A stretch of 30,677 nt of DNA from a virus (taxonomy: Duplodnaviria > Caudoviricetes), in the IMG/VR virus record IMGVR_UViG_3300034150_000068, positions 1 to 30,677 of that record; one strand, 5' to 3'. This document shows, piece by piece, positions 3,103 to 15,209 of the stretch. A program made the position numbers and the translations under genes. A model generated the notes under the pieces. It did no database searches. It was not told the origin of the DNA and saw only the letters and a program-made list of their open reading frames with translations. Numbering within the stretch: the first letter of the stretch is position 1; each line of letters starts with the position of its first letter.

Positions 3103-3785
3103 AAATTGCAATTTTTTACCATACCCTTTTCTACCTGGGCAGCCCTCCGGACCTGAGGCCGATGGCTGTCGATATCGTGAGCGAGCAGATTACGCAGATG
3201 GAAAAAGCGGGACTCATTTGTGCGGCCGGCGAAATGATCGTAGGCGTCAACGGCGGCGAGGAGAGCGAGGACATTGCTCGAGTGCTCTTGCCACCCAAAG
3301 CCAAGTTGGTTTTTCACGGCCTGCAATCGCGTGCGGAGAATCCAACGATCGTTCTGCTCGAGAATTGGGCTAAGACTCATCCCGGCTGGGCGATCCTTTA
3401 CCTGCACAGTAAAGGCGCGAGCCATGAGCACGGGAGTCCCTACGGCCAGAACGTCTCTGGTCCCTGGCGCCATGCCATGATGGCTGATCTTGTCGACAAC
3501 TGGCGCGCCTGCGTAGCCGACCTGTCAGCCGGCGCCGAAATGGTTTGCTCACACTTCATGAGGAACATGGCAGACGGGTCACAGCATATCCCTGCCGGTA
3601 ATTTTCTGTGGACTACTTCAAACTTTGTTCGCACTCTGCCGTCCATATTCATGCGTGAACGGATCAAAGTCTCCGGTATTGCCGCACTCGAGAGCCGATA
3701 TGAGGCAGAGGTGTACTGGGGCAACGGTCCAAGGTTGCCCATGGTGAAGGAGTGGCGCCCCACTGGCGGGGGCGGCTGTCCGTAA
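3099..3785 (+). CDS. Glycosyltransferase-like protein
   Basis: ATGA overlap start. Motifs ILYLHSKG, W.HAM, GNFLW and R..AE.YWG resemble the YLHTKG / GNFWW family of phage GT-like proteins. Confidence 0.6.
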   Translation: MKIAIFYHTLFYLGSPPDLRPMAVDIVSEQITQMEKAGLICAAGEMIVGVNGGEESEDIARVLLPPKAKLVFHGLQSRAENPTIVLLENWAKTHPGWAILYLHSKGASHEHGSPYGQNVSGPWRHAMMADLVDNWRACVADLSAGAEMVCSHFMRNMADGSQHIPAGNFLWTTSNFVRTLPSIFMRERIKVSGIAALESRYEAEVYWGNGPRLPMVKEWRPTGGGGCP

Positions 3786-4879
3786 TGAGTCCGGAGCTTG
3801 AGGCGGAATACGCGGACGCGGCGCGCCCTTTCTACGAGGGCGGTGGCGCCATCACGGAGGAAGTTACCAAACTAAAAGGCTGGCGTTTCTTTTTAGAGAT
3901 CAATTCAGTCTGCAATCTCCGTTGCCCGACGTGCACCAAGGGCAATCAGGCTGCCGTCGACGGTTTGAAGTATGACCACCAAACCGGCATCATGGATGAG
4001 TCTCTGATGGAGCGAATCCTAGACAAAATCCAATCCGAAAACCCTAAGGCATTGATCTTCCTTTACGGCAATTCTGAGGGTTTCATTCATCCCCGTTTGC
4101 CCGAGTGCATCGCCTCAGTAAAGCGCCGCGGGCTGTCTCCTCAGTTATCCAGTAACCTTAACTATATTCAGCGTGTACCTGAGACGTTGGAAGCTGGGCC
4201 GGACCTGATAATCATCAGCCTCTCGGGCTGGACTCAGGAAGTTTACGAGAAAGGGCACGTTGGCGGTAACATCGAAAAGGTTAAGGCCAACATGCGGATT
4301 CTGGCGGAAGCCAACAACCAGCGCCCCGCCGAAAAACGGATCGATATCAGAGTCAATTTCCATGTTTACATGGATAACACTCACGAGATTGAGCCGATGA
4401 AGGAGTACGCCACTAACTTGGGGCTTGGCTTCTTCACGTCGCTCGCTCGGGCCATTTCAATGGAAAGCACGATTCAGTACGAGCGCCACTTGGACCCCGA
4501 TGCCACGCCATTCGAGATACAAGAAGGGCAACCAGATTGGAACCAGCTTCTACCTCCGGTGTCTCAGACTTATATCGACAGCATGAAGCGTCTTAAAATC
4601 CAGCCAACTCAGGCGCGGGAGATGTACCAGCATTATCCAGTTCGAGAGGCTTGCCCTGTTGGCGCAGGAATGCTTTTCACTTTTATTAGGCATGACGGAT
4701 TAGTGCAGATGTGCGCATGCACAGCGGATCGGAGGATTACGCTCGGAAACTATTTGGATCTGACTCCAGACCAAATGATCGAGAAAAGGCACGGACATTC
4801 GATTTGCAAGCAGTGCCTAAAATACCGGAATAACCTTTACTACAATCTCGTTGATCGAGACAAATGGGAATCGCCATGA
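3785..4879 (+). CDS. Radical SAM protein with SPASM/twitch-like C-terminal domain
   Basis: CNLRCPTC (CxxxCxxC) motif. C-terminal CPV...IRHDGLVQMCACT...LGN...CKQC. Confidence 0.92.
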   Translation: MSPELEAEYADAARPFYEGGGAITEEVTKLKGWRFFLEINSVCNLRCPTCTKGNQAAVDGLKYDHQTGIMDESLMERILDKIQSENPKALIFLYGNSEGFIHPRLPECIASVKRRGLSPQLSSNLNYIQRVPETLEAGPDLIIISLSGWTQEVYEKGHVGGNIEKVKANMRILAEANNQRPAEKRIDIRVNFHVYMDNTHEIEPMKEYATNLGLGFFTSLARAISMESTIQYERHLDPDATPFEIQEGQPDWNQLLPPVSQTYIDSMKRLKIQPTQAREMYQHYPVREACPVGAGMLFTFIRHDGLVQMCACTADRRITLGNYLDLTPDQMIEKRHGHSICKQCLKYRNNLYYNLVDRDKWESP

Positions 4880-5070
4880 AAGACTTGACCGGAGAAGTAT
4901 TCGGAAAACTGACAGTGATTGCGCTACACGGAACCCGTCCATACCCAGGCGGAGGGGACGGCGTAACAATGGCCGCAAAGCAATGGGCGAATAAATCGGG
5001 CATCCCGTACACCACCCTGCTACATCGCTTAAATCAGGGATGGCTAGACGAAAGGGCGGTTCAGCCTTGA
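4876..5070 (+). pseudogene. Internally deleted HNH homing-endonuclease remnant (ORF still open, 64 aa)
   Basis: N-terminal MKDLTGEVFGKLTVI and C-terminal QWANKSGIPYTTLLHRLNQGW match the two ends of phage HNH homing endonucleases. No HNH core lies between them. Confidence 0.7.
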
Positions 5071-5693
5071 AAACCCTTGATGAGACTGGGATCGAGAACG
5101 GCACAGACAAAGCCAGCGTTTTTACAAGGACCTACGCCAAGCCTCATGATTACCTGAGGCACATGGAGCGGTTCTTTGCGACTCTCAAGGACAAGCCGAT
5201 CAAACTTGTTGAGATTGGAGTCGGCGGCGGAGAGTCGATCCGCACTTGGCTCGATTACTTCGCTTTCGCCTGGGTCCTTGGAATAGACAACGTGCACGAT
5301 ACAAACAGGTGGAACACTCCAAAAAAGTGGAATACCTGCGACGCGGAGTCGGACGGTTACGATCGATACGCTTTCATGGCCGCGGATCAAACCGATCCAA
5401 CTTTTTGGGCGTGCTTTGCGGCGGACGTTGGGCGAGCTGTCGATATCGCCATCGACGATGGCTCCCATGAACCTAAGGGGGTGCAAATGTCCTTTGCTGG
5501 CTTGTGGCCGCTCATTAAGCCAGGGGGATTTTACGTGATCGAGGATTTAGGCTGTGGCTTTACCACCCCGGGCCTCCCCACACACTGGGAATTTATGGCG
5601 GCTTACCTCGCTCCGCTCATGATTGGCGGGCTTGAAGATCTCGATTCGATTTACATTGCCCGCGAATTGGCAATAATCCGAAAGAAAGGCTAA
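5067..5693 (+). CDS. Class I SAM-dependent methyltransferase (sugar O-methyltransferase-like)
   Basis: Motifs LVEIGVGGGES, IAIDDGSH, LIKPGGFYVIEDL. TTG start at 5067 overlaps the previous stop. Confidence 0.9.
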   Translation: MKTLDETGIENGTDKASVFTRTYAKPHDYLRHMERFFATLKDKPIKLVEIGVGGGESIRTWLDYFAFAWVLGIDNVHDTNRWNTPKKWNTCDAESDGYDRYAFMAADQTDPTFWACFAADVGRAVDIAIDDGSHEPKGVQMSFAGLWPLIKPGGFYVIEDLGCGFTTPGLPTHWEFMAAYLAPLMIGGLEDLDSIYIARELAIIRKKG

Positions 5694-5695
5694 CC

Positions 5696-7003
5696 GTGTA
5701 CACCATTCACAACCGCTGCCGTGCCTGCAACTTTGGCCCTCCCATTCTCCCCGGCGGAACAAAAGCGGGAGCCAACTCCGATCGCCTGCTCCCTGCGTTC
5801 AGCCTGGGGGTTCAGCCGCTCGCTAACGATTTCTGCGCAGACGGCGAGGAGCGAGCCGGTTTTGCGCCGCTCGAGATTCTCCTCTGCCCTCAATGCGGTT
5901 TGGCGCAGTTGAGCGTAGTTGTTGACCCTGGGATCCTTTACGCCAAAGATTATCCCTACGTAACCAGCAAGAGTGACACCATGCGGCAACATTTTGAGCT
6001 TCTCTGGAAGGATTGTAGCTCGCTGGCCACTTCGAAAACTGTCATCGAGGTTGGCAGCAACGATGGGGATTTCCTCAATTACTGCCGGCAGCACGGCGCA
6101 GAAGCTGTGATCGGTATCGAGCCGGCTGCCAATCTGGCGACGGCGGCCGAAAAGCAGGGCATCCGGACGATCCGCGATTTCTTCAACCCCGCCTCAGCCG
6201 CGATGGCTAGCCAAGCCATGCCCAAAGTGGGGATGATCTTTGCCCGTCACGTCTTTTGCCACGTACCGGACTGGCAAGCCTTCATGGCTAACCTGCAACT
6301 CTTGGCTGGGCCCGAGACTCTGATTTGTATCGAGGTGCCTTACGTGATGGATCAACTCAAGGCGATCAGCTTTGACCAGATTTACCATGAGCATTGCAGC
6401 TATCTCTCCATCCGTGCGATCAAAGCCCTGCTCAACGGCGGCCCGTTCTGTCTCAAAGATCTCAAGCATTACATGATTCACGGCGGCGCGATTCTGCTCA
6501 TGATTCAGCGCCGTAGCCCTGAGGTAAAGGCCAGTCAAACGGTCCTCGAGTACCTCGACGCGGAGAACGCGACGTATGAAAGCTGGCAGGAGTTTGCCAT
6601 GAAGAGCACGGACGCGATCGAGAAACTCAAAGGCTTGATCAAGCAGCTTCGGAGGGATGGTAAAAGGGTTGTGGGTTTCGGCGCCTCCGCCAAAAGCACG
6701 GTATGGATCAACGCGATGGGGCTAACTCGCGCTGATCTGTCCTGCGTCTACGATTGCACTCCTTCAAAGTGGTATCGGTACATTCCAGGCACGGATATCC
6801 CGATCGTTAACCAGGGCGGGTTTTACGTCGACGATCCGGAGTATGCAGTGCTTTTCAGTTGGAACTACGAGATCGAAATTATGGACAAGAACCGGAAATG
6901 GATGGAAGGCGGTGGGTCGTTCATTGTCCCCATTCCGGAGGCGAAAATCTATCGCGCTGAGACGTCTTTCAAGCCTTACGATGCGCCAGTTGCTGCCGGT
7001 TAA
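5696..7003 (+). CDS. NDP-hexose C3-methyltransferase family (C-methyltransferase)
   Basis: N-terminal Zn site CRAC...CPQCGLAQL, then LGVQPLANDF, VIEVGSNDG, FDQIYHEH, IHGG, GFGASAKS, YIPGTDIPI and SWNY. Confidence 0.93.
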   Translation: MYTIHNRCRACNFGPPILPGGTKAGANSDRLLPAFSLGVQPLANDFCADGEERAGFAPLEILLCPQCGLAQLSVVVDPGILYAKDYPYVTSKSDTMRQHFELLWKDCSSLATSKTVIEVGSNDGDFLNYCRQHGAEAVIGIEPAANLATAAEKQGIRTIRDFFNPASAAMASQAMPKVGMIFARHVFCHVPDWQAFMANLQLLAGPETLICIEVPYVMDQLKAISFDQIYHEHCSYLSIRAIKALLNGGPFCLKDLKHYMIHGGAILLMIQRRSPEVKASQTVLEYLDAENATYESWQEFAMKSTDAIEKLKGLIKQLRRDGKRVVGFGASAKSTVWINAMGLTRADLSCVYDCTPSKWYRYIPGTDIPIVNQGGFYVDDPEYAVLFSWNYEIEIMDKNRKWMEGGGSFIVPIPEAKIYRAETSFKPYDAPVAAG

Positions 7004-12575: not shown

Positions 12576-12808
12576 AATACAAAAACCTCTCAGCCGCGCA
12601 GCTTGCCAAGCTGATTAAACGCCGCCCCATGAAAGACGGCAGCGCCGCTCATGTTTGGGCGGAGCGCATCGAATCTGAGAAACAGCGTTGCGCGCTGCCA
12701 AAGAAAACTCAGCGAAAACTAGGCCTACTCCCTCCCGTCAATGGAAACTCAAAGAACCATCCGGCCGCTCCGCGGTCAGTGCCTGTTACTCCTGTTGCCT
12801 CGCATTAA
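12572..12808 (+). CDS. Small basic hypothetical protein
   Basis: GTGA overlap with the scaffold stop. The 3' end overlaps groES by 68 nt. Confidence 0.5.
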   Translation: MKYKNLSAAQLAKLIKRRPMKDGSAAHVWAERIESEKQRCALPKKTQRKLGLLPPVNGNSKNHPAAPRSVPVTPVASH

Positions 12809-13067
12809 AGAAACTCAATCTGGCATTGCGTTACCCGATATTTCCTTCGATAGAGCCAAAGGGGAAAAAGAGCGGCCAGCGACGGCGAGAGTTATCAGTG
12901 TCGGACCATGGAAAAAGGCGAAAAACGGTCTTAGCCTCTTGCCGGAAATTAAGCCAGGGGATGAAGTCTTGATCGGCTTCTACTCAGGACAAAAACTTGA
13001 TTTCGACGTTAGCGGGAAATTGCGACTGGTTAAAACTGATGAAGTGTTGGCGATAGTCCAGAATTGA
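12741..13067 (+). CDS. groES: GroES/Cpn10-like co-chaperonin
   Basis: IRPLRGQCLL...KETQSGIALPD...ARVISVGP...IKPGDEVL...YSG...LVKTDEVLAIV reproduces the GroES pattern, including the mobile loop. Confidence 0.92.
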   Translation: METQRTIRPLRGQCLLLLLPRIKETQSGIALPDISFDRAKGEKERPATARVISVGPWKKAKNGLSLLPEIKPGDEVLIGFYSGQKLDFDVSGKLRLVKTDEVLAIVQN

Positions 13068-13305
13068 TCTGAACTACCGCTAACCTCTGGCACTGCGCAC
13101 CCATCCGTAGACTACCTTTGGCAACCATAGGCTGCCCCGCTCAGCCAAACCGATCCCTTCCATACCATTCCCGATCGGACAAAACCTACACCGGACACAG
13201 CCTGACCGGAACACAGCCCACCATACCAAACCATATCGCACCAGAGCCGAACCCGCCTAACCCTTCCACTCAACTGTCGACGCTACCTTAGCAAACCTTG
13301 CCATG

Positions 13306-13326
13306 CCGGCCTTACGGCCCGTTCCA
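13306..13326 (-). repeat. 21-bp direct repeat with GGCC-GUAA-GGCC hairpin (distal copy)
   Basis: CCGGCCTTACGGCCCGTTCCA is identical to 13472-13492. The minus strand reads TGGAACG-GGCC-GTAA-GGCC-GG. Confidence 0.95.
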
Positions 13327-13471
13327 TACCCGAGAGAACCAAGGCTCAGACCACCGCGCCTCAGCGCACCCCGACCCGATCTCAGCAAGCCTCAATCCGC
13401 ACCCGTCATTACCATACCCGAGCTAACCCGACACTGGAGAGCCGAACCGTGACAAACCGCACCATACCGAA

Positions 13472-13492
13472 CCGGCCTTACGGCCCGTTCCA
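13472..13492 (-). repeat. 21-bp direct repeat with GGCC-GUAA-GGCC hairpin (proximal copy)
   Basis: Identical to 13306-13326, with a period of 166 nt. Confidence 0.95.
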
Positions 13493-13624
13493 CTCCGTGC
13501 CAAACCTTGCCTCACACAAGCTCACCACTGCCGACCATACCTTGCCTAATCTCGCCTCACCTATCACAACCAGACCGTGACCTACCTCGCACAGCCTGCC
13601 CCCTGATCGCCGCACCGAAATAGA

Positions 13625-14257
13625 TCAGTCATCAAGTAGATCAAACTTGATCACGTTGAACCGTCCAAAGCTGGGGCGAAAATCAGCCATTCCGATAATC
13701 CTCCCGCCTTGCTGGATGAGCGCGTTAAGCTTCTGAGGTGCCAAGTACTCAGGCAGGTTCACCATTAAAATAAATCCCGCCTTCCATCCTGGCTTAAGCG
13801 CCGGTCTGGTTCGAGTGATCGCGTTCCTCTGGATCACAACCCTGCGCATATCCAAATAATCCGGCTCGGCCAAACCTGTGTCTGCGAGCTCCGTTAGGCT
13901 CACAAGCGCCGCCTTCATGAGATCCATCATGGACTTGCGAGGCGAGCGGGGATCCTGCTCGTACTTCGCTGCGTGGATCACGGTTTGCCTGAGGTACTCG
14001 CCAGGAATACAGATGTGCCCCTTTTCATTTCTCCAGAGGAAACTCTCGATATCATCGGTTTTCTTCTCCGCGCTGCCTTTTTTGGCTTTAGCTTTTGCGG
14101 CAACAGACTCGTTATTCCAACGATGGAAGAGCAGAGGGCACGTGCCTTCAATTTCGACCAAAACCCGATAGGGCTTTTGCAGTGACAGGATTTCCTCTGC
14201 TCCGTTAGTTGGGGACTCTCCGCCAATTTCCGTGATCTTTTGTGGTGATTTACTCAT
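13625..14257 (-). CDS. Stand-alone RAMP/Cas7-like RNA-binding protein
   Basis: First strand VLVEIEGTCPLLFH; ICIPGEYLRQTV (cf. the RAMP motif IPGSSLKG.L); thumb-like RRVVIQRNAITRTRP; C-terminal Gly-rich loop GGRIIGMADFRPSFGRFNV. Only convincing minus-strand gene in the window. Confidence 0.75.
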   Translation of the reverse strand: MSKSPQKITEIGGESPTNGAEEILSLQKPYRVLVEIEGTCPLLFHRWNNESVAAKAKAKKGSAEKKTDDIESFLWRNEKGHICIPGEYLRQTVIHAAKYEQDPRSPRKSMMDLMKAALVSLTELADTGLAEPDYLDMRRVVIQRNAITRTRPALKPGWKAGFILMVNLPEYLAPQKLNALIQQGGRIIGMADFRPSFGRFNVIKFDLLDD

Positions 14258-14455
14258 TGAACCTTACCGCACCTTAAGTGCAAAGCACCTGCTCACTGTG
14301 TTGTACCGCAGCGCTGGGAGCGCTGCCGACAGCAAACAGGTGCCAAATTTTGAGGTTTCTTTCATCCGGGTACAATCGGATTACGGACGCATGTTTATAT
14401 CCCCACAAACAGAACTGCAAGAAAAATAGCTCTTGACCCCCTCTGAGCTTCGAGA

Positions 14456-14724
14456 GTATTGCTACCCGCGATCAGTGAATTGCGCGGGCCCATATAGCGC
14501 ACGATCGAAGCAGGGGAGATAAAGAGCGGCCGTGCGAAGCGATCGTGATCGCTGTTGGCCCGTGGAAAAAGGCCAAAAATGGTTTTGCCATCCTCCCTGA
14601 TTTCCCTCCTGGCGCCAAAGTTTTGGTGTCCTTCTACGCCGGCACCAAGCTCACCCACTCGATCGGGGAGCGGCTCCGGCTCTGCTCCGTTAGTGACGTC
14701 CTGGCAGTAGTTGAAGAAAAATGA
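14456..14724 (+). pseudogene. groES: Decayed second groES copy (no start codon, probable frameshift near 14490)
   Basis: 14491-14724 translates HIAHDRSRGDKERPCEAIVIAVGPWKKAKNGFAILPDFPPGAKVLVSFYAGTKLTHSIGERLRLCSVSDVLAVVEEK*, which aligns to the 3' two-thirds of 12741..13067. In-frame TGA at 14476. VLLPAISE in another frame (14456-14479) resembles LLLPRIKE of the intact copy. Confidence 0.88.
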
Positions 14725-15209
14725 GCATTGAAACAAAGCACGCGTACCGTTTCGGATATCTTAAATCCGAACAGTGGCAAACCGTAAGGATCGCAGCGCT
14801 GGCGAGGGAAAAGGCAAAGTGCCAAATCTGCGGCCATGAGTCTGTTTTCAACGATGCTCATCACGTCTGGTACCCGCCGAATATATGGAGGACTACTGAA
14901 AAGCATCTTATTGTCCTCTGCCGGGAGTGCCACGACTTTATTCATATTGTCCGGCCGGAGTGCAAAACCAGAAATGAGAAGCAGGGGCTTCAAGAGTGGC
15001 AGGCGTTCAAATTGGCCGTAATTGCGTGGCGATATTCAAAGGGTCAGGTTTTCGAAAAAGCTGAAGGGCTGGGAGGCACCCGAAACATGAGGGAGGCGAT
15101 CGAGATGTACCGAAAGCGCTGCTCAGATCAGGAAAAGGAGATCGAAATCCTAAAGGCAGCGCTCTCAGAATATCGAATTTCTGTTGACACCAAGATTTTG
15201 AGGAGTTAA
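14721..15209 (+). CDS. HNH endonuclease family protein
   Basis: YLKSEQWQTVR..ALAR...CQICG...DAHHVWY...LIVLCRECHDFIH. ATGA-coupled to the stop of the groES remnant. Confidence 0.9.
   Translation: MSIETKHAYRFGYLKSEQWQTVRIAALAREKAKCQICGHESVFNDAHHVWYPPNIWRTTEKHLIVLCRECHDFIHIVRPECKTRNEKQGLQEWQAFKLAVIAWRYSKGQVFEKAEGLGGTRNMREAIEMYRKRCSDQEKEIEILKAALSEYRISVDTKILRS

Follow-up and report, generated by a model that had tools for sequence, protein, structure and literature searches.

The stretch of DNA analysed here (the window; 30,677 nucleotides) is a linear virus contig that is 57% complete. Its minus strand carries a VIPR locus, VIPR being a CRISPR-like system that silences DNA under the guidance of RNA and was described in 2026 (bioRxiv 10.64898/2026.04.26.720920), and the protein encoded there is a Vipr homologue. 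A profile built from 52 relatives of the gene product matched SUSP1 Vipr (PDB 36pp, E 2.2e-11), and in the profile alignment its thumb Arg and G-loop D-F-R were aligned with R138 and D177-W178-R179 of SUSP1 Vipr, residues whose roles are given in bioRxiv 10.64898/2026.04.26.720927. The structure model of the product had a pLDDT of 84.9, and the closest folds were Cas7/Csm3 chains. A homologue search returned 3,873 proteins. The product had no match in Pfam, no cas families were found among the window's 30 ORFs using Pfam, and no CRISPR-like repeats were found in the window. No known domain was recognized in the same-strand neighbours of vipr; on the opposite strand, 460 bases away, is an HNH gene.

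Two further observations were made around the gene. Two to three GGY/NN units abut the vipr start codon (14258-14280, minus strand); in several related Vipr loci, long arrays occupy the upstream side of vipr instead. Also upstream of vipr, a partial second GroES-like frame (about 14470-14725, plus strand) resembles the intact Cpn10 gene at 12741-13067, and the VIPR cassette is located between the two copies.

The array occupies a 530-base non-coding tract (13618-13089, minus strand) directly behind vipr. The lag-5 GG signal was the strongest of the window at the array and was present on the minus strand only. Comparison of the array to Rfam yielded nothing above chance, and no hammerhead was found. 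The features discussed below are collected in Table 1.

Table 1. Features of the VIPR locus, listed in the direction of the minus strand.
Feature	Position	Strand	Basis
vipr gene, 210-aa RAMP/Cas7-like protein	13625..14257	-	profile and structure model
GGY/NN repeat array (predicted vrRNA array), ca. 100 pentamers, five main registers	13089..13618	-	periodicity, parsing
Proximal copy of the GGCC-GUAA-GGCC hairpin, directly before block C	13474..13485	-	sequence, folding
Block C, 17 units, reverse-complementary to the coding strand of the family matched by block Y	13391..13475	-	profile
Self-pairing segment before the distal hairpin	13330..13393	-	folding, comparison with L001
Distal GGCC-GUAA-GGCC hairpin	13308..13319	-	sequence, folding
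Block Y, 11 units, sense of the excisionase-like coding strand	13255..13309	-	profile, shuffles
13 further units in the register of block Y, common to L001	13190..13254	-	parsing, comparison

The repeated hairpin module stands ahead of both decodable blocks (Y and C), and no tail follows block Y. A 4-bp stem was predicted for the distal copy, yet its 40-nt fold was not above shuffles (z -0.6); the fold of the proximal copy had a z of -2.3 compared to shuffles. The module could end an upstream RNA as its tail or mark a site of 5' processing, and the self-pairing segment is possibly a tail or processing element. The register of block Y runs on for 13 units past the end of the block with no visible boundary. 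No target was found for these 13 units, a 9-unit pattern giving 0 matches in viral contigs.

Reading the minus strand from 13309 to 13255 in the five-base register and taking the first two bases of each of the 11 pentamers gives CC AT AA TT AA AG CG GT GT AG TA, which decodes to P-[IM]-[KN]-[FL]-[KN]-[RS]-R-V-V-[RS]-[Y*]. Both the letters and the decoding of the original prediction were thus confirmed, and block Y starts within the 3' arm of the distal hairpin stem (GGCC-GTAA-GGCC as DNA). The last two bases of this hairpin double as the first NN of the block, so that its first unit (CC) is hairpin stem as well; CC trails both hairpin copies. Two other studies yielded contigs (X3 and X6) in which the block is letter for letter the same. 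Its linkers are GGY in 6 of 11 cases and GG in 7 of 11, and CGT, ACA, and TGA are consecutive; as 5/11 are non-GGY and these three non-GG linkers adjoin, the guide may be decaying. The read units skip codon position 3 of the target family described below. Unit 4 allows F or L, and the family prefers F (97% F). As for self-targets, the best match of block Y in the window was 14/22 (null, 14-17), and self-targeting across the window and 15 Vipr loci was at the null level.

Each 11-unit window of the array was scored in both orientations against profiles of codon positions 1 and 2 of the target family that were built for this study. The first profile comprised 114 of 120 listed homologues (the 6 seeds were removed), and it was accompanied by 5,000 shuffles of all units outside block C. 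The second comprised 121 of 140 newly listed representatives, from which 12 proteins of over 150 aa and 7 that fit the retrieval motif (see below) had been dropped. Block Y scored 25.4 bits in the sense orientation against the first profile, a value attained by a single array among 5,000 with shuffled units when all registers and both orientations were considered. Against the second profile, whose consensus at block Y is P-I-R-F-N-S-R-L-V-R-Y, it scored 28.9 bits in the sense orientation; 0 of 10,000 shuffles reached that score (shuffle maximum, 22.9). Block C scored 27.3 and 30.2 bits, respectively, in the antisense orientation. The comparison with shuffled arrays that had been proposed along with the original prediction was therefore clear, the real block far outscoring the shuffles against both profiles. 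The score collapsed at unit 12, which is likely the end of the block Y guide. When 260 family proteins were compared to block Y residue by residue, none agreed at 11/11 residues, one agreed at 10, and seven agreed at 9; shuffled blocks reached at most 8 (4/200). Some circularity remains in these tests because the motif that first retrieved the family allows the letters of block Y.

Direct searches for the target were carried out in viral, genome, and metagenome contigs. The original prediction had offered a gapped regular expression for block Y; no exact natural match to it was found, with 0 in viral contigs (20 read bases), 0 in genome contigs, and 0 in metagenome contigs (22 read bases each). 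Several shorter or looser patterns were tried and their hits rejected. A 16-base core of block Y occurred at 13 viral loci, none of them in a family gene. An exact 18-base core of block C occurred at 3 viral loci, one of which read in frame within a more distant HTH gene and could not be extended (22/34), and at 13 genome loci that were all chance occurrences (19-24/34). Of the family motifs applied to viral contigs, one gave a single chance match, another gave 0, and another gave 17 candidates, none of which was confirmed.

The family itself was retrieved from metagenomes with the degenerate motif N-x-R-x-[IV]-R-Y-R-L-x-D-[IV], in which the four codons before N were left free. Twelve loci were obtained, of which 10 fell within 7 distinct small HTH genes; the other two (L047 and L056) were one 40-residue non-HTH frame and were excluded from the family. 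The free codons of the retrieved genes mostly encode P-[IL]-[RK]-[FL] and match block Y at 39/56 bases (8/8 in L054/L055). The best DNA match of block Y was 19/22, on L048 (A-I-R-L-N-S-R-V-V-R-Y), which has an integrase gene alongside; 9 of these bases are set by the retrieval motif, and 10 of the 13 others match. For block C, the best DNA match was 28/34, on L049 and L053. The target bar in the VIPR paper is 80% of read bases (bioRxiv 10.64898/2026.04.26.720920). The anticipated natural gapped match was hence found in part: no exact match exists in the collections searched, and a 19/22 match above that bar is located in an excisionase-like gene. L048, L049, and L053 are probably not the true alleles, and the criterion of at least 80% is partly circular for them. 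With a skip of one base, the matches were 19/22 (block Y) and 28/34 (block C), compared to 14-15 and 19-20 with skips of 0, 2, or 3, at loci that had been picked with a skip-1 motif. Among the 7 natural genes, the third codon position is the least conserved over the block Y codons (0.38 vs. 0.58 and 0.88), and the identity at the skipped third positions is 0.38 for block Y and 0.34 for block C. Units of the head block (13549-13598, minus strand) matched at 17/20 downstream of the L048 HTH gene; this match was absent in L001 and the other loci and is probably due to chance.

All seven retrieved proteins matched HTH_17 (PF12728), two of them above the curated cut-off, and the three tested all matched phrog_66 (excisionase and transcriptional regulator). 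The wing region of excisionase-like genes, named as the target in the original prediction, is thus that of an HTH_17/phrog_66 family. Its members resemble HTH_17, phrog_66, and AlpA-like regulators in their winged-HTH size and wing motif and, in some loci, in their proximity to integrase, repressor, and primase genes. They form a subfamily that mostly falls below the Pfam cut-off (5/7 seeds), and their excisionase role is an annotation. The family is large: one search returned 2,071 proteins, and another returned 530 cluster representatives at E 1e-10 or better.

Partial integrative-element modules were observed in 4 of the 7 distinct loci (L048, L049, L053, and L054/L055), all on short contigs in which no element boundaries were seen. 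An integrase gene lies upstream of the HTH gene in L048 and L049, a primase gene lies downstream of it in L053, and a tRNA-Thr, a repressor-like gene, and a rep gene stand beside it in L054/L055. The HTH gene of L051 adjoins an AAA ATPase gene, no integrase being visible there, and L046, L051, and L057 showed no context of the integrase, tRNA, or primase type. No virion genes were recognized among the neighbours scanned on these short target contigs. The combination of integrase, regulator, excisionase-like gene, and primase or rep gene is one that we take to recall satellites and integrative elements. The loci from L046 to L057, with their integrase, HTH, and primase or rep modules and their large family, gave no true viral match with the motifs tried, and these modules are possibly undescribed satellite-like elements.

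Regarding the host, a neighbour of the HTH gene in L049 is similar to Toprim primase clusters (Atlas) with mainly Verrucomicrobiota members, and 2 of the 120 listed target-family proteins bear Verrucomicrobiales names. Family matches in a sample of 101 genomes of Planctomycetota, the phylum of L035, were all weak (best E 1.8e-8). Named homologues of the phage's own proteins provided no organism names. The host is probably a Verrucomicrobiota bacterium; the evidence for this is thin, and the Toprim resemblance is a lead only.

One reading of block C is N-A-R-L-I-R-Y-R-L-E-D-V-K-A-I-E-G, and its linkers are GGY in 10 of 17 cases. The original prediction had noted a parallel between block Y and the ARLIRY of this other block and had regarded the two as guides against the wing region of excisionase-like genes on opposite strands. 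The profile scores bear out both points, block C fitting overlapping codons in the antisense orientation at the 30.2 bits given above. Over the seven shared codons, the two blocks differ at 5/14 read bases, and they therefore likely target different alleles or elements. Because inversion of block C would also invert its GGY scaffold, block Y was not derived from block C by inversion. Together, the strand polarity of the scaffold and the read-base differences support the independent origin that had been suggested for the two guides. Block Y is in the mRNA sense, and both blocks are on one strand; consequently, block Y would pair with the template strand and not with mRNA. The earlier argument for a dsDNA rather than an mRNA target is sound for block Y, as its coding sense makes pairing to the mRNA impossible. 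Targeting of dsDNA from either strand is not new: for VIPR, natural targets have already been reported on both strands, along with binding to dsDNA and repression irrespective of the strand targeted (bioRxiv 10.64898/2026.04.26.720920).

A sister phage, L001, has a Vipr that is 100% identical to that of the window and a DNA identity of 81-92% (window 13060-13630 vs. L001 3630-4124), and its array is rearranged. It has one hairpin module compared to two in the window (loop GCAA, z -4.5), and its self-pairing segment is located before block C, whereas that of the window is located after it. The segment is 86% identical to L001 3700-3792 but has moved, and its folds differ: a single long stem in L001, another stem in the window. 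The first 15 units of block C are kept in L001 (1/30 NN and 4/45 linker differences), with one unit fewer at the end of the block. The last three units of block Y are also kept, and the units between block C and those three are missing; the first eight units of block Y have been lost or replaced, and the score at the block Y register is -4.5. In the shared distal units, 0/32 NN differ compared to 4/48 linker bases, both small counts. Since the three shared units also fit the family (p 7.5e-4 for these units alone in the fixed register), L001 is probably a cut remnant and the window not a chance chimera, the order of events being deduced from this comparison.

Taken with the locus and the target family, these results make it likely that block Y is a guide segment directing Vipr to the template strand of an excisionase-like gene in an integrated element, and the interpretation of two guides against an excisionase wing is supported at the level of sequence. 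According to the VIPR preprints, Vipr coats RNA with one subunit per pentamer, and the pairing rule is that NN pairs antiparallel with every third base of the target skipped (bioRxiv 10.64898/2026.04.26.720920). Under this rule, Vipr would coat the guide RNA, and the NN bases of block Y would pair antiparallel with the template strand of the excisionase-like gene. Binding would repress transcription of this gene from either strand. The acquisition of the two guides was presumably separate, each against a different allele or element. With the excisionase-like gene silenced, and probably also the replication genes downstream of it, a satellite-like element would be held in its integrated state while the phage infects the cell.

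The locus resembles described VIPR systems in its phage-encoded Vipr homologue and same-strand GGY/NN array, in guides that skip one base at the wobble position and are directed at both sense and antisense strands, and in predicted targets that lie in other mobile elements (bioRxiv 10.64898/2026.04.26.720920). The accessory vap genes of VIPR types II-VII were not seen beside vipr in the window, among same-strand neighbours that had no known domain. In the window, a single long array shifts register and contains two hairpins with GNRA loops, in place of the repeated tails of the SUSP1 type. The preprint bioRxiv 10.64898/2026.10.15.759431 describes how SUSP1 VIPR blocks the excision of F5 satellites by silencing their recombinase; there, as here, the guides lie on conserved codons of an excision gene with a wobble-aligned footprint. 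The SUSP1 target, the satellite recombinase at its catalytic serine, was shown experimentally in E. coli. The window differs in its predicted target, an excisionase-like HTH gene of 60-70 aa, in its two opposite-strand guides, and in its probable Verrucomicrobiota setting.

Alternatives to this reading were weighed as follows. Block Y could be a decayed relic of a guide against the same family, with only block C still working. The three consecutive non-GG linkers and the 5/11 non-GGY units would be expected of a relic, no exact target of block Y was found in any collection, L001 has dropped eight of its units, and perturbation of GGY abolishes VIPR silencing (bioRxiv 10.64898/2026.04.26.720920). 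However, the read bases of block Y fit the family at nearly every unit though its linkers have drifted, and the same tendency in the units shared with L001 (read bases held, linkers drifting; small counts) suggests selection on NN. Block C itself is only 10/17 GGY, and VIPR arrays are often degenerate internally (bioRxiv 10.64898/2026.04.26.720920), so we regard a relic as rather unlikely. That the fit of block Y arose by chance, through the choice of orientation, register, and residues, or through the joining of unrelated old and new units, is very improbable and largely refuted. Such a fit would be eased by the two-way residue ambiguity, by the first unit doubling as hairpin stem, and by a family seeded with a motif that permits the block's letters; further, the last three units are common to L001 and stand there behind unrelated upstream units. 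Against this, the shuffles span all registers and both orientations, and the second profile is free of every protein that fits the retrieval motif. In the fixed register, the first four units, which lie outside the motif, gave a p of 2.8e-4 alone, and units 2-8 (the seven missing from L001) gave a p of 5e-6. No block other than Y and C scored above 5.0 bits with the second profile.

A different question is whose gene is silenced: the guides could be directed against rival temperate phages in which this HTH gene occurs rather than against satellites or other non-viral integrated elements. The VIPR of P. fulva targets prophage regulators (bioRxiv 10.64898/2026.04.26.720920), and the AAA ATPase gene of L051, with no integrase seen, would suit a phage target. 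Phage G003, which has a related VIPR (74% Vipr identity), carries, roughly 1 kb away from vipr, a gene for a family member (L073, 1444-1644, minus strand) that ends L-N-S-R-M-V-R-Y, and rival phages are thus also possible targets. But the G003 gene matches block Y at only 13/22 and block C at the background level, and the family motif had 0 true matches in viral contigs compared to 7 genes in metagenomes. The best-matching genes are situated by integrase or primase genes, with no virion gene recognized nearby on these short stretches. Temperate phages as the intended targets are accordingly considered improbable, and a satellite-like or other integrated element is the preferred destination of the guides.

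The mechanism is known; what is new is the target family, its doubled coverage from opposite strands, and the rearrangement of the array. Searching the literature for VIPR, excisionase, guide RNA, and phage together returned no paper. Excisionase is not mentioned in the main text of bioRxiv 10.64898/2026.04.26.720920, whose data tables S1-S4 may list such targets, and AlpA and Verrucomicrobia are absent from its supplementary PDF and from the accessible part of bioRxiv 10.64898/2026.10.15.759431. The locus provides a statistically clean natural case in which VIPR guides were decoded to a target with no perfect database match. It would extend the anti-excision strategy of SUSP1 to another step, acting on an excisionase-like factor instead of a recombinase, and probably to another phylum. 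With two guides on overlapping codons, presumably gained separately, and a rearranged array in L001 beside an identical Vipr, it also constitutes a small test bed for the gain and loss of vrRNA guides, for which no explanation was found in the accessible text of the VIPR preprints. More speculatively, and with a low probability in our estimation, guide turnover may be in progress here, the hairpin having been duplicated and a second, opposite-strand guide placed behind it on the same seven wing codons. The phage would then hold two independent, wobble-proof guides against the excisionase of a large, as yet undescribed group of satellite-like elements in Verrucomicrobiota, and L001 would later have cut the second guide by recombination. 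If so, acquisition would have a biased or selected hotspot, and the hairpin would mark the starts of guides.

Two minor observations concern related loci and the remainder of the window. A short ORF that by eye is HTH-regulator-like interrupts or trails the array behind vipr in L010 (3579-3950) and L008 (2903-3330); it is a candidate accessory gene and is absent in the window. At 3752-7003 (plus strand), the window has a radical SAM gene and two methyltransferase genes, one of the sugar C-methyltransferase type, which are possibly a DNA or surface modification cluster.
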